Positions 9,741-39,819 of a DNA stretch of 64,000 bases are shown piece by piece. This stretch comes from Mobula birostris (Eukaryota), in assembly GCF_030028105.1 (NCBI RefSeq), contig NC_092402.1:51170352-51234351 (forward strand). Direction: 5' to 3'. The position numbers and the translations under genes were made by a program. The stretch's first letter is position 1; every line of letters starts with the position of its first letter. The notes below the pieces were generated by a model. The model made no database searches, had not been told where the DNA came from, and saw nothing but the letters and a program-made list of their open reading frames with translations.

Positions 9741-9958
9741 AGTTGGCCATGGTGTTCACAACACCACGCTCCACCTTTGAAACACCAACAAACAACTGAC
9801 CTTGTCCTTGCTAAGAATATCATATGCTATATACATTATTACTAATTTGAGACAGCCAGCGTCTATCACTGAGTAAGACAACAGCAGCAATTCGGGGGAG
9901 GGCTGGAATAATAGTTAAAAGCCCATCATGCTATCCTATAACATATTACTATGTAATT

Positions 9959-10143
9959 GAGGTGTCAGGGAGGGGTAGCACCTCTGGTGGGGGAACATGT
10001 CGCGTCCTTTTCAAGGCGGTTAGTCCACCTTTGGTCCCCACCTGGCACTCAGCTCTCACCTGTGGCTCCCCGTAGCTGTTTGCATGCGACAACGGCCACA
10101 CCCCGGGCAACGGCTTCGACAAGCCGGCTAAACCAGGTGAGGG
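9959..10143 (+). ncRNA. Putative HDV-like self-cleaving ribozyme
   Basis: P1 GAGGTGT(9959-65)/ACACCCC(10098-104); P3 GGC/GCC; L3 TCCCCGTA plus an inserted hairpin; GGGCAA; P4 CGGCTT-cgac-AAGCCG; J4/2 GCTAA; P2 CTCTCACCTG-T/ACCAGGTGAGGG. Confidence 0.65.
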
Positions 10144-10455
10144 TAGCCGACAGGTCTCAAACCCTCGGTGAGATAGGGAGATGTCTATCCCAGCATGTGA
10201 AGACAGACTCCGGCGGATTGAGCGGACGAGACCAATGGAAGGTCCAACGTTCAAGAAGGCGGTCTCTGCAAGCGTCGTGGAACGTGTAGAGCAGGACAAG
10301 ACACAGAAGACGTCCTGGTCATCCACTGCGCCTAGTCCCATCTCCAGCCATCTCGACTCTTGTCTTGCCACTGGATCCAGATGGGAATTGGGAAGAGAGA
10401 GTGAGGCTGACGCTGCGCAGCTCTCCCTCACTTAAATCCAAATCACGCGCTAGTC
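9959..10455 (+). mobile_element. Non-autonomous RTE-derived element (5'-UTR module, 3' end truncated)
   Basis: CpG-rich non-coding segment from gggaggggtagcacctctggtg to ccctcacttaaatccaaatcacgcgc. It resembles RTE 5' regions as I recall them and begins with an HDV-like fold. Confidence 0.65.
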
Positions 10456-10939
10456 TCTGGTGAGCTTTCTTGCACCGGTGTCTATGTGTTTGGACCTGGA
10501 TGAATATTGGTGAAGTTCACTCCTAGGAATTTGAAGTTCCCAACCCTCTTGTCCTCAACACTATTGATGTAGGCAAGAGTTTGTGCACCGTCAACACCCT
10601 CCTTCCTGAAGTCAATGGCTAACTCTTTGGTTTTGCTGATATTGAGGAAAAGGTTGTTGTCATAACATTATTTTGGATTTCCAGAGAAACACAACATGGT
10701 TCAGGGTATCATCATGGCAGAGGAGTGGGTTTGGACAGCAACTTTGAGAGCACCTAGCACCGGATGAGCAGGCTCCTATCAAAGTCAAAGTGGAGTTTAT
10801 TGTTACCTGTATTCAGGTGCAGTGAAAAACTTGCTTGCAGCAGCATCACAGGCACAGAGCATCAGGTACACAACATTCACAAGAAAAATATAAATCAAAC
10901 AAGGAAGATCACAATTAGAATAAAAAAGGTCCATTGGAG

Positions 10940-34500: not shown

Positions 34501-37500
34501 CTAGGGCCGGTATGACACTTGTGTGTTCCCTCCCTGACATTCAGGAGGTGCTGATCTGGCTGACCAACTTGCAGAATGAGCTGGGCGGTGAGGTGTCCGA
34601 TGAGAAGCTGAGGGAATTCATCTGGAACACCCTCAACTCTGGCAGGGTGAGTGGATGAGGATGGGACCAAGAGATAGTGTGGATGGTCTCTGGGGTGGGA
34701 GGGGAATAATGCCACAGATCATAAGAATCCCATTCGGCCCATTGTCTGTTTTGCCATTCGAGTGATTCATTTTCCCCTCACAACACCATTCTTCTGCCGC
34801 CTTGTAACTGTTGACACCCTTACTTACTTAGAACCTATCAACCTCCACTTTAAATATACTGAATGACTGGCCTCCACAGTCACTCTGGCGATTAATTTTA
34901 CATATTCACCACCCAATGGCTAAAGAAATTCTTCCTCATCTGTTCAGAATCAATCAGGTTTAATATCACTGGCATATGCTGTGAAATTTGCTTTGCAGCA
35001 GCGGTACAATGCATTGTATAATCATTAAAAACAAATTACTATAAGAAATACTTTTTTTTTGCACTAAAATGTTTGTGAGGTGTTTATGGGTTCATTGTCC
35101 ATTCAGAAATCTGGCTGAGTGGAAGAAGCTATTTCTGAAACATTGAGTGTGTATCTTCAGATTCCTGTACTACCACCTTGATGGTAGCAATGAGACTCCC
35201 ACTATTGAAAATGTCCAGGGCTTTCAATCGTCAGGGCTATCCCTTGAGGTTGAGGATGATGGTCTCTGTTCCATTGATCTATTTATGGGCTCCCAAGTGG
35301 CTTATGAGTCCAATCTTGGCTTTAAAAGTTTTTCCGCATTCAGGACAAGTAGTTCCAGATGGCAGATTGGGCTTTGGTTGTTGCTGCCTCTCTTTCCATT
35401 TTCTTTTCTAATTTTGCATATCTGTTGGCTTCGAAAGTTGCTGTTCCTTCTCGAATGATGGTTTGCCAGTTCCCTGTCCTTGGCATTGGTTTCCCAATTG
35501 TTGATGATGGTGCTACATTTCTTCATGTTGGCTTTTAAGACGTCTTTGGATCTCTTCTGTTGTCCGCCTCTTTTGCGTTTGCCGTCTTTAAGCTGGGAGT
35601 AGAAGATTTGTTTCGGCAGACGTTCGTCTTTCATCCTAACATGACCGCTCCATCTTAGTTGGTTCTTGATGACGTAGGCTTCAATGCTTGTTTTTGCTTC
35701 ATTTAGCATGCTGACGTTTGTTCTTCTATCTTCCCAGCTGATATTTAAGATGTCTCGGAGACAGCATTGATGGAACTTTTCAAGTGCCTTCAGATGTCGT
35801 CAGTATGTTATCCAGGTTTCTGATGCATACAGGAGCGTTGGGATCACCACTGTTTTGTACACTAACATTTTGGTGTCTGTTCGAATGTCACGATCGTGAA
35901 AGACTCTTGTTTGGAGAAGTCCAAAAACTATTCCAGTGCATTTAAGACCATGTTGGATCTCGACATTAAGGTCGACATTGGAGGAGAGGTGACTTCCAAG
36001 ATACAGAAAGTGGTCCACGTTTTCCAGGGTTGTTTCGCCAAGTTGAAATGATGGCTCTATCCGACTTGTCTCAGTTGGTGACGGTTGGTAGATGATCTGA
36101 GTCTTGGAATTGATGGTAAGTCCAAGTTTTGTGTATGCATGGTTGAAGGCAGTCAGACTCTGTTGTAGGTGGTTTTCTGAAAGAGCTGCAACACTGTTGT
36201 CATCTGCGTATTGGAACTCGTGGACTTGAGACGGGCAAGATTGAAAAGTCTGCCATCCGTTCTGTAGACAATTTCAATTCCTGGGGGTAGGTCGTCCTTG
36301 ATGATGTGGATGATTGTCGCAATGGAGATGAACAAAGTTGGGGCAATCACGCATCCCTGTTTTACTCCTGATCTAACTTGAAAAGGCTCATAGTTACTGT
36401 TGCTGACCATGATGACATGCTTGCCACAGTCATGGAGGAGTCTCAGGATTCGAATGTACTTTTCAGGGCATCCATAGGTGGACAGGACATCCTGTAGGAG
36501 TTCCCTTGATACCGAGTCAAAGGCTTTGGTGAGGTCGATGAATCCCATGTACAAAGGTTCAAGTTGTTCATGAAATTTTTCTTGTAGTTGTTGCATTGTG
36601 AAGATGATGTTGATTGCTCCACGTGATGGTCTAAAACTGGCCTTTGTCTCCGGAAGGATCTTCTCAGCTAAAGGCTTGAGCCTGTTGTTCATGATGCGGG
36701 TGAGGATCTTTCCTGCTGTTGCTAACAGAAATTCCACGATAATTTCTGCATTTGGATCGATCGCCTTTCCTTTTGTAGGTGTAACGATTGCTGAGTCTGT
36801 AAAGTCTGCTGGTACGTCTTCATTTATCCAGATCTTGAGAAGTTGATGCAGTTGGTAATGAAGCAGGTTACCTCCAATTTTGTAGATCTTGGCTGGTATT
36901 CCATCGAGTCCAGCGGCCTTGTTGTTTTTCAAGGTTTTGACTGCTTCCTTGACTACAAGTGTTGGTATTTTGCTTAGGGAGTTGTCAACGGGCTGCTTTG
37001 GAATGTTGTTAATCACATTCCTGTCAAATGAGACAGTTTGATTTAGAAGATCTCCAAAGTGCTCCCTCCACCTAGAATTGATGTCAGCATTGCTCTTCAA
37101 GATGGTTGAACCATGTTTGCTTTTGAGAGGGGCTTGACCGTGAGTGGATGGGCCAAAAATAGCTTTAGTTGCGTTGAAAAAAATCCTCGAGTGTCGTTGG
37201 CGTCTGCTAGTTGTTGGATTTCCTGAGCTTTCTTCTTCCACCATTGATTTTTCAGGTTTCGAGTGCTCTTCTGGACTGCAGCCTTGCATTCCTGATGGTG
37301 TTTCCTTTTGGTAGCCGATTGTTGAGCGTTTTGTAAGGTGATGAAAGCTTTACTCTTTTCGTCGATGAGTTGTTGGAGTAGTTTGTCGTTATCATCGAAC
37401 CAATCCTGATGATTTTTCGTCTTGAACCCAATTGTTTCTTTGCAGGAGGTGATGATAGCGTTCTTCAATTGATTCCAGTGTTCTTCTACAGATGGTGGGA

Positions 37501-39819
37501 TTTGTTGAGGCAGTTGTTCTTGAAGCAACACTCATAACATGCTGGAGGAACTCAGCAGGTCAGGCAGCATCCGTGGAAATGATCAGTCAACGTTTCGGGC
37601 CGGAACCCTTCGTCAGGACTGAAGAGGGAAGGGGTAGAGGTCCTATAAAGAAGGTGGGAAAGAGAAGGCTGGTAGGTTCCAGGTGAAAAACCAGTAAGGG
37701 GAAAGATAAAGGGGTGGGGGATGGGAAGCAGGGAGGGGATAGGCAGGAAAGGTAAAGAAGGAAAAGGGGAAAGCACAATGGTTAGTAGAAAGAGGCAGAA
37801 CCAAAAGGGAGGTGGAAGGCAGCTGGGGGAGAGGGCAGAGTGACATCGGGATAGAGGAAGGCAGGGGGAGGGAATTACCGGAAGTTGGAGAATTCGATGT
37901 TCATACCAAGGGGCTGGAGACTACCCAGACGGTATATGAGGTGTTGCTTCTCCAACCTGAGTTTAGCCTCATGGCAGTAGAGGAGGCCATGTACGGACAT
38001 ATCCGAATGGGAATTTGAAGCAGAGTTGAAGTGGGTGGCAACTGGGAGATCCTTTCTGTTGTTCTTGAAGATTTTGTGGAACTTCTGTACATGGTTGATG
38101 TCTTGAAGGATGTCAACATTGAATTTCTTAAGTGTTCTGATTTTGGTGTTTCCTTTTGGGCCGAATCTTCATTCTCATGGTGGACAAGATGAGTCGATGG
38201 TCTGTCCAGCACTCGTTGGCATCAGTAACAGCTGTTGTTATCAGTACATCTTGTTGGTCCTGAGATCGTACAATGATGTAGTCGATGAGGTGCCAGTGTT
38301 TGGAGCATGGATGCTGCCAGGAGACTTTGTGCCTGTTTTTCTGGCGAAAAAGGCTGTTTGTAATCACCAGGTTGTGTTCAGCACATTTGGTGAGGAGGAG
38401 TGTTCCACTGGTGTTGGCCTTGCCAACTCCTTCCTTGCTTATTATTCCAGTCCAGAGCCTATGATCTTTCCCGACTCTGGCACTGAAGTCTCCCAAGAGA
38501 ATAATCTTGTCGTTGGGCTTTCAATATCTTAGAGGTTTCAATGAGATCCCCTTCAAACTCCAGTGAGTACAGACCCAAAGCCATCAAACACTCGTGCATT
38601 AACACTTGCATTCTTGCAATCATGCTTGTAAACCTCTGGACCTTTTCCGATGCCAGCATATTCTTTCTTAGATAAAGTACCCAAAACTGCTCTCAATACT
38701 CCAAATGTTCTCTGACCAATGTATTTAAGCCTCAGCATTACACTCTATAGATGCTGCCTGACCTCTCAATGAATGCTAACATTACATTTGCCTTCCTTGC
38801 CAACAACTATCTGTGATCCGAGGGGGAAGGAGAGTGGTGATGGTCTGTGGTATGGGGGAGGCTGAGGTGTGGGGGGAGGTGTGTAATGGGGGGGGGGTGA
38901 GGTTAACCAGGGTCAATATTGGGAGTAGGTGATGGTGGGTTGGTGTCACCAGGCTTGGATGTGTTGGGAGGGCTGATGGGATGGGGGGCTACTCTCTAAT
39001 GCTCCCCGTCCCTCTTTCCACGGAGGTGTGTGTGCCCAGAAGCAGAACAGTGACTGCCTTGTCGGGTTGCAGGTGGTACCAGGATATGGCCATGCCGTGC
39101 TGAGGAAAACTGACCCCCGCTACACCTGCCAGAGGGAGTTTGCCCTCAAGCACCTCCCCAATGATCCCATGTTCAAACTGGTGGCTCAGCTCTACAAGAT
39201 CGTGCCAGGGGTCCTCCTGGACCAGGGCAAGGCCAAGAACCCCTGGCCCAACGTGGATGCCCACAGTGGTGTCTTGCTTCAGGTGAGGGGCAGGGTTGGG
39301 GACAGGGAGGAGGGCTTGGGGAAGGTTTGTTGGAGGGTACTGACATGTAACACTCCCTCATTCCACCAGAGTCCTGTGCTTGATCTTAACCCAACTGACT
39401 ATTCAGTATGTCACAGCTGTCCCATTATCATGACCTCCATCTCTCTCAATATTAGAGAATGAAGGGGGTTAACTACCTCACCCTGTAACCTCTCTATTCT
39501 CATCAGAAAATGAAGGAAATGATCCAGTACACCCTGTGTAACATCTTGCTGTCTTTTCTCTCCACTAAACCCCCCCTCAGTGTTACAGAATGAAGTAGGT
39601 GAGCCACTACTCCCTGTAACCCATGTCTCTTCTCTTTCTCCCCCACAGTACTATGGAATGAAGGAGATGAACTACTACACTGTGCTGTTTGGGGTGTCTC
39701 GAGCCCTTGGCGTCCTCTCCCAGCTGATTTGGAGCCGCGCCCTGGGATTCCCGCTGGAGCGTCCCAAATCCATGAGCACAGATGGCCTGATCAAGCTGGT
39801 CAAGAGCAAGTCGGGTTAA
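13290..39819 (+). CDS. CS: Citrate synthase, mitochondrial; 11 coding exons, 469 aa
   Basis: Exons 13290-13343, 28252-28299, 29329-29436, 31212-31277, 31434-31565, 31871-32059, 32638-32837, 33543-33672, 34545-34646, 39073-39282 and 39649-39819 total 1410 nt, all GT-AG. Catalytic motifs present: [38 protein letters not shown]. Confidence 0.98.
16790..17560 (+). mobile_element. Degenerate CR1 LINE 3' fragment in CS intron 1
   Basis: Remnants of [22 protein letters not shown] and the CR1 3' UTR. Confidence 0.7.
19540..20850 (-). mobile_element. Rex1/Babar-type LINE fragment containing a MITE
   Basis: [11 protein letters not shown], gcccccctgctctact (PLLYL) and gctgatgacaccact (ADDTT) motifs on the minus strand. 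Confidence 0.75.
20503..20750. mobile_element. hAT-Charlie-like MITE, near-palindromic along its length
   Basis: Ends CAGTGGTCCCCAACCTCCG...CGGAGGTTGGGAACCACTG; internal arms are complementary (ccagcacatctt/aagatgtgctgg, attaggtgcc/ggcacctaat). Confidence 0.85.
25713..25930. mobile_element. hAT-Charlie-like MITE with an 8-bp TSD
   Basis: TIRs CAGGAGTCCCCAAC / GTTGGGGACCACTG; TSD ATGAAGTG at 25705-25712 and 25931-25938. Confidence 0.9.
28252..28299 (+). CDS. CS: CS exon 2
   Basis: [16 protein letters not shown]; cag/gtgagt. Confidence 0.9.
28560..29020 (+). mobile_element. Penelope-like element 3' fragment (GIY-YIG C-terminal remnant)
   Basis: [17 protein letters not shown]...LQ..GM.I remnant followed by a pyrimidine-rich tract. 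Confidence 0.65.
29329..29436 (+). CDS. CS: CS exon 3
   Basis: [36 protein letters not shown]. Confidence 0.95.
29655..29800 (-). mobile_element. Internally deleted RTE-related SINE
   Basis: The minus strand joins a head (gggtggagat..ctaccaaa..taaggcgct..cctgcaggtcacccttgggcaaggtgtag) to a tail (tcatacaacacggcgcataa). Confidence 0.5.
31212..31277 (+). CDS. CS: CS exon 4
   Basis: [22 protein letters not shown]. Confidence 0.96.
31434..31565 (+). CDS. CS: CS exon 5
   Basis: [44 protein letters not shown]. Confidence 0.96.
31871..32059 (+). CDS. CS: CS exon 6
   Basis: [37 protein letters not shown]...KTKYWE. Confidence 0.96.
32638..32837 (+). CDS. CS: CS exon 7
   Basis: [25 protein letters not shown]...[10 protein letters not shown]. 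Confidence 0.96.
33543..33672 (+). CDS. CS: CS exon 8
   Basis: [24 protein letters not shown]...GPLHGLANQ. Confidence 0.96.
34545..34646 (+). CDS. CS: CS exon 9
   Basis: [34 protein letters not shown]. Confidence 0.96.
37526..38057 (-). mobile_element. Penelope-like element 3' fragment nested in the RTE
   Basis: GIY-YIG C-terminal remnant ([44 protein letters not shown]) plus terminal repeat; 13-bp TSD GTTGTTCTTGAAG at 37513-37525 and 38058-38070. Confidence 0.88.
37584..37621 (-). ncRNA. Minimal type-I hammerhead ribozyme motif of a Penelope-like element
   Basis: CAGTC-CTGACGA-aGGG ttccgg CCC-GAAA-CG-TT-GACTG. Confidence 0.7.
39073..39282 (+). CDS. CS: CS exon 10
   Basis: [17 protein letters not shown]...[13 protein letters not shown]. 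Confidence 0.96.
39649..39819 (+). CDS. CS: CS exon 11 (coding part)
   Basis: [21 protein letters not shown]...[20 protein letters not shown]. Confidence 0.96.

Follow-up and report, generated by a model that had tools for sequence, protein, structure and literature searches.

HDV-like ribozymes at the 5′ ends of RTE retrotransposons are established (Ruminski et al. 2011, as cited in the available text of PMC3774820, PMC5786205 and PMC6765202). In the accessible part of the supplement to PMC4870747, the published descriptors require an L3 of the form TYYHCG*Y or TNCNCGY with one optional base and a J1/2 of no more than about 50 nt. RTE 5′ ribozymes and drz-Agam-2-1 (PMC4908430, available part) share with the structure described here the order of helices, the CNRA junction and the position at the element 5′ end, and likewise have an extended P2 and a structured J1/2 closed by a helix P1.2. 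The arrangement of P1, a short linker, a strong P1.2 and a long P2 is the activating one measured for drz-Agam-2-1 in the same text. There are two differences. Here L3 is 26–29 nt long across families (28 nt in family S, below) and contains a hairpin, whereas those ribozymes have an L3 of 7–8 nt, and here the 5′ strand of P1.2 nearly repeats the 5′ strand of P1, so that two registers are allowed.

The R2 ribozymes (Eickbush et al. 2013; PMC3774820, available part) are similar in that a 7-nt strand paired with P1′ sets the cut and J1/2 is long. Duplications at R2 5′ junctions can also offer two P1 strands; unlike here, they consist of 28S target sequence. The R2 variation listed in that text covers P1, P2, P4, J1/4 and, in Nasonia, L3 spacing, with no helix in L3. 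The HDV genomic and CPEB3 ribozymes have P1.1 and residues U20/G25, C75 and A77/A78, all with equivalents here (the role of C75 is treated in the available part of PMC13635239), and differ in a short J1/2 and an L3 of 8 nt (HDV) or 7 nt (CPEB3), as given in the accessible text of 10.1101/2022.09.22.508989. On the side of the element, RTESINE1/2, WALLSI3, MAR4_MD and Bov-A (PMC5786205, available part) and the R2 SIDEs combine a parental 5′ UTR and 3′ tail with no coding frame, as family S does. Bipartite RTE elements have target-site duplications like those of S and usually keep the extreme 5′ end of the parent, where the ribozyme lies; unlike for S, the available text gives no structure with an L3 hairpin.

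Against this background, RTE 5′ HDV-like ribozymes are already known and the predicted helix in L3 is what appears new. The original prediction that standard descriptors would miss such a variant is correct, because both published limits are exceeded, and the J1/2 limit of about 50 nt would by itself exclude it. Because its L3 departs from the published length, we provisionally file the structure as a variant of the HDV-like ribozyme. An L3 hairpin was not found in the openly accessible text of the literature searched, and an earlier drawing may exist. The available text of PMC4035085, PMC10879173, PMC9901934, PMC1874588, PMC11331408, PMC13708176 and PMC6007223 describes no L3 helix. Rfam returns no HDV-family match for the window, for copies L027 and L236, or for L188, a copy that has lost the hairpin; since L188 is missed as well, the Rfam result is uninformative on L3.

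The predicted ribozyme in the window and its families

The window (the whole 64-kb stretch of DNA that was analysed) contains, over both strands, one match to a relaxed HDV descriptor with an L3 of up to 60 nt, and this match is the feature at 9959–10143. With L3 limited to 9 nt there is no match in the window. Sixty dinucleotide shuffles of the window give 1 relaxed match with a P2 of at least 9 bp and 10 with a P2 of at least 6 bp. All HDV-like elements of the original prediction are present between these coordinates, and their correct order is borne out by both the sequence and the relaxed descriptor.

All features lie on the plus strand. An inner repeat unit (9959–9969) includes the GAGGUGU (9959–9965) originally taken as the 5′ strand of P1, which we predict to be the 5′ strand of P1.2. 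It is followed by the structured interior of J1/2 (9970–10040), which differs between families, and by the 3′ strand of P1.2 (10041–10050), whose outer 5 bp are paired in 94% of alignment cells. The 5′ strand of an extended P2 of 10–11 bp (10053–10063) leads into the P3 5′ strand (10064–10066). L3 consists of a part of canonical length, UCCCCGUA (10067–10074), in which the equivalents of U20, C21, C22 and G25 are conserved while 23, 24 and 26 vary, and a 20-nt insert (10075–10094) made of a 5–6 bp hairpin (10075–10093) and the linker G10094. P3′ (10095–10097) and P1′ (10098–10104) are followed by the GG of P1.1 (10105–10106) with J1.1/4 (to 10110; 96% of cells paired), the P4 hairpin (10111–10126; strands 10111–10116 and 10121–10126), J4/2 with the predicted catalytic C10128 (10127–10131), and the P2 3′ strand with a bulged C (10132–10143). 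Directly 3′ of the ribozyme there is an extra hairpin (10147–10168), identified by eye and left out of the counts, which by eye families S, D and E all retain; D appears to show a single two-sided change there. The remaining RTE-derived 5′ UTR body (10169–10457) ends where the copy breaks off; the last ~59 nt, the (ACA)n tail and the target-site duplication are missing, so the copy is 3′-truncated.

The window copy is damaged in other ways. At 9950–9958, where the family carries a further 9-nt unit that is likely the true P1 5′ strand with the cut at its first G, as judged from family boundaries and compensatory changes, the window copy has at most a remnant. A P1 of 6–7 bp from G1 is thus present in the family with the outer unit and absent here, and the outer duplex of this copy is worth −0.5 kcal/mol. 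G>A at 9960 creates an A–C mismatch and weakens the inner duplex to −6.2 from −11.8 kcal/mol, and G>A at 10092 weakens the insert fold from −5.2 to −1.5 kcal/mol. The family repairs both mismatches: 31 of 37 copies have G at 9960, and 35 of 37 have it at 10092. The suspicion in the original prediction of a damaged copy with one P1 mismatch is thus confirmed and extended. Because the outer unit is missing and both P1 and the insert hairpin carry mismatches, the window copy is likely inactive, and the finding concerns the family rather than this single copy. Judged from the sequence alone, the copy lies between two GC-rich, apparent divergent gene starts at ~7,650 (minus) and ~13,290 (plus), together with other retroelement fragments. 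A broken RTE copy of family A lies elsewhere in the window (35276–38520, minus strand), interrupted by another repeat at ~37570–38070, and the 5′ end of family A gives no HDV-like match.

The region heads a repeat for which the 4.0-Gb source genome yielded 2,075 first-look candidates; those listed (40) are 95–98% identical, the window's own copy excepted. At full length, members of this family, S, span ~565 nt with (ACA)n at the end; flank words of at least 10 bp are shared in 15 of 37 copies. A young RTE family, B, encodes endonuclease and reverse transcriptase; its 5′ UTR matches positions 232–510 of S at 75%, and its tail matches the last 31 nt of S (535–565) at 84%; S has no ORF. Because 5′ UTR and tail match family B, S is, in the terms of Kojima 2018 (PMC5786205, available part), a bipartite, non-autonomous derivative of an RTE. 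Three short motifs were not found in the supplement text of that paper. A tRNA-headed SINE was considered for S and rejected, as the element starts with the ribozyme, no tRNA is called in L027 and there is no Rfam match. We presume a likeness of S to marsupial RTE derivatives.

Family D (L118, L130), found with a pattern that leaves the L3 insert free, is an autonomous RTE with the same predicted ribozyme upstream of its endonuclease reading frame. The RTE origin proposed originally is therefore supported by D as well as by the matches of S to the UTR and tail of B. Families E1 and E2, found through variant letters in public runs, have 826 exact matches to a 20-nt motif. Among 56 loci in metagenome records, 20 are relatives by eye, several of them continuing into RTE-type UTR sequence, and 36 were discarded by eye as chance; only 6 passed the strict descriptor. 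We take the metagenome relatives to be host animal DNA. Viral contigs give no match with the hairpin pattern, and with the hairpin left free none of 143 prokaryotic and viral loci passes the descriptor. Neither the descriptor nor model R1 finds a ribozyme in RTE families A, B and C or in three DUF6451-bearing loci. The free-insert pattern also matched L111, L114 and L115, which were rejected as chance; they show a repeated coding stretch with an LTR gag-like look and fail the descriptor.

Several side observations concern these families. In 11 of 30 D loci (L124, L126, L129, L133, L135, L139, L141, L142, L143, L148 and L150) the ribozyme-bearing 5′ UTR of ~490 nt is joined, with slightly varying joins, to a short tRNA-like repeat with its own tail, and in L133, L135, L141 and L148 duplications flank the entire composite. 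The tRNA-like label is given by eye; ARAGORN called nothing in three of the composites. Family B (L265–L279; L091:575–940) has a CpG-rich head where the ribozyme would be, and 9 of 15 B loci have ahead of them a host-like coding piece with a weak Glyoxalase_4 match (E 4e-5 and 0.0035), which we take to resemble methylmalonyl-CoA epimerase. At G000:C38:14.8–17.3 Mb and on C171, many DUF6451 matches with repeated equal scores look like a tandem array holding RTE copies.

Pairing, covariation and the L3 hairpin

The fold was assessed on a 14-row alignment drawn from these families, including metagenome rows. The nested double pseudoknot is present with P1, P2, P3, P1.1 and P4 in order. In this alignment 90.9% of cells are paired in structure, a value reached by 0 of 500 shuffles, although the shuffle test overstates significance because the rows are related; controls with the structure slid along the alignment give 35–49%. 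Three pairs of the six in P4 change on both sides, in 6, 7 and 2 of the 14 rows. P2 has five pairs with two-sided change, and bulge shifts blur its alignment; folded singly, every row (14/14) forms a long P2 of ~9–13 bp. In one record, L193, P4 does not fold. The 3-bp P3 and the 1–2 bp P1.1 are kept and invariant, partly because the search patterns fix them; in the metagenome rows this holds for the P3 5′ strand. All 14 rows share the C at the catalytic position and the AA that follows and differ in the intervening base, giving a J4/2 of CNRA, and C10128, named originally as the candidate, occupies this invariant position. Together, the pairing in 14 rows, the two-sided changes in P2 and P4 and the invariant C support the proposed HDV-like fold. 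The feature is real and most likely works like an HDV ribozyme.

The covariation check proposed for P1, P4 and the L3 hairpin gave a mixed picture: P4 shows clear covariation, as does P2, P1 shows three changes of one record each, and the L3 stem is invariant. The first four insert pairs do not change, and in the metagenome rows the search pattern had fixed them. The fifth pair is U–A or U–G throughout the 14 rows, a sixth is present in half of them (7) with three pair types, and the stretch inside the fifth pair ranges from 7 to 10 nt with varying sequence. A genome-wide search for a double change at insert pair 3 gives 2 matches, one of them complementary. The L3 helix is supported, on sequence grounds, by complementarity and a free loop, not by covariation. 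The invariant stem may have a sequence-specific role.

That the insert is fixed in the lineage agrees with the counts. The source genome contains 2,123 exact cores with the hairpin and 9 short-L3 matches, of which 8 are in elements, each a different deletion. One of these copies, L188, has lost exactly the insert, leaving an 8-nt L3 that passes a descriptor with an L3 of 7–9 nt. The canonical short-L3 pattern with GGGCAA has no match genome-wide, and 17 matches in the source genome to another hairpin sequence are all single mutated copies or chance, with no such family. The first six L3 bases fit TYYHCG*Y in S and D. U27, near which the hairpin was originally placed, is dispensable.

The P1 strand and the alternatives

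The original prediction took 9959 as the first base of the element, placed P1 and the cut there, and expected copies to start at this position. The family speaks for another register. The upstream 9-nt unit, with at most 2 mismatches, is present in about 85 of the first 100 exact S matches (1,321 in total), and 3 show no trace of it (both counted by eye, in a sample that requires the exact inner 24-mer), and a script count finds the unit in 32 of 41 S copies. Most copies begin 9 nt upstream of 9959. In runs X3 and X19, which like all eight runs used consist of contigs and cannot show where an RNA starts, loose ends pile up just before the outer G. The coincidence of the element 5′ end with G1 of P1 thus holds for the outer unit of S, is bimodal in D, and fails for 9959. 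The inner strand at 9959 would instead form a 10-bp stem, P1.2, with 10041–10050, and including this strand changes the energy of the J1/2 fold by a mean of −11.7 kcal/mol (23 S copies). The two units of family D have the same sequence, and its P1.2 is weaker (mean −7.8 kcal/mol, n=16). The S and D means were computed separately, and rows S_L027, L213, L214, L220, L229 and L236 are excluded from these inner-unit energies. In the minimum-energy fold of the 5′ part, the inner unit is in P1.2 in only 8 of 14 rows. From copy boundaries, three compensatory changes and folding energies, the P1 5′ strand is probably the upstream unit, 9 nt before 9959.

The outer unit is preceded by T in 21 of 32 S copies, for which untemplated addition, slippage and target choice are candidate origins; according to the available part of PMC1874588, U is the −1 leader base with which the HDV genomic ribozyme is fastest. 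In a sea-urchin HDV-like family, 5 of 11 copies have the P1 5′ strand twice (PMC4870747 supplement, Figs S15–S16, as far as accessible).

The alternative is that the strand at 9959 is P1 and marks the cut, and that slippage creates the upstream unit afresh with every insertion. In its favour, the inner strand pairs perfectly with P1′ in the majority of S. In family D only 12 of 28 copies have the outer unit, and the other 16 have the inner G as their first base; in S, D and E there are also third and partial additional units, so slippage does happen. However, the outer unit of S ends in AT and the inner one in CA, which rules out the inner as template of the outer, and a start at the inner G is seen in only ~3 of 100 S copies. 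The compensatory changes also follow the outer unit: P1′ changes together with it in L199 (pair 2), L202 (pair 5) and L232 (pair 6), one record each, and these changes work only with the outer unit, while the inner register shows no two-sided change on the 14-row alignment. A program count of five compensatory P1 changes includes misaligned or truncated rows. In L193, P1′ is the same as elsewhere, whereas the strand occupying the inner position and the 3′ strand of P1.2 have diverged together. We regard a cut at 9959 as the rule for the family as improbable. In D, whose P1 has a C–A mismatch at position 7, the cut may fall at either G, with slippage rebuilding the outer unit.

With the outer unit as the favoured P1 strand, two other explanations concern the insert. 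The fold could be kept while catalytically weak or dead, the L3 hairpin disabling the active site, the structure serving as a 5′ protective cap or a binding site for the RTE protein, and the 5′ ends arising by promoter or exonuclease stalling. L3 belongs to the active site (PMC4908430, available part), the published descriptors require C at L3 position 24 but E2, L209 and several further relatives carry A, the HDV-like fold aids R2 insertion through stability (PMC11331408, available part), and family B does without a ribozyme. Set against this are the identity of the catalytic-position C and AA in all rows while the intervening base varies, the retention of P1.1, and copy boundaries at G1 of P1, the cut position of this ribozyme class; we consider a dead fold unlikely. 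The ribozyme could also be active with the invariant insert strands forming a folding switch or a tertiary contact, for example between the L3 AGCUG and CAGCU/CAGUU at the J1/2–P2 junction during transcription. The stem is invariant across families with changed P2 and P4, which a passive helix would not need, and by eye the alternative pairing can be drawn in most of the 14 rows. Yet AGCU is palindromic, which makes such pairing easy to come by; in L199 the pairing contains a mismatch, no covariation supports it, and the families are maybe too close for the stem to have changed. We consider this possibility very unlikely.

Proposed mechanism and meaning

What we observe is the element with its copy number, boundaries and RTE parentage, the pattern of paired strands and the fixed insert; from this we infer a mechanism in six steps. 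A host transcript would run into a copy of the element. The inner repeat unit would pair with the end of J1/2 to form P1.2, which with the long P2 would pinch P1 and P2 together as in drz-Agam-2-1. The outer unit would then pair with P1′, and C10128 would act as general acid in a cut 5′ of the first G of the outer unit. The L3 hairpin would bud out past the eighth L3 base and leave the core intact. An RTE protein acting in trans, probably from family B because its 3′ tail matches S, would copy the RNA from the (ACA)n end. New copies would start at the cut site, and slippage at the G-rich 5′ end would sometimes add further units. Against this mechanism, family B, the likely mobiliser, has no ribozyme match. 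On the model as a whole, we expect this account of an HDV-like 5′ ribozyme, with P1 formed by the outer unit and the L3 hairpin outside the core, to be probably right.

A wider reading is put forward tentatively, and we hold it to be rather doubtful: a widespread, unrecognised HDV-like subclass in one RTE lineage, with a helix in the active-site loop and a self-renewing cut site, in which the strength of P1.2 picks the cut among two competing strands and reverse-transcriptase slippage would rebuild a lost outer strand. The competition between strands is based on the observation that about 3% of S copies, with P1.2 at −11.7 kcal/mol, start at the inner G, compared with about half of D copies at −7.8 kcal/mol.

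The source genome provides natural controls, namely L188, from which precisely the hairpin is gone, and families whose P1.2 stems are of unequal strength. The finding may bear on RTE-based gene-writing templates, whose 5′ UTRs matter (PMC13708176, available part), and if true the L3 helix would offer engineers another site for attaching aptamers. An active natural ribozyme whose L3 holds a helix would widen the definition of the HDV family and imply that a lineage present in thousands of copies in this genome, and in other animals, has escaped searches.
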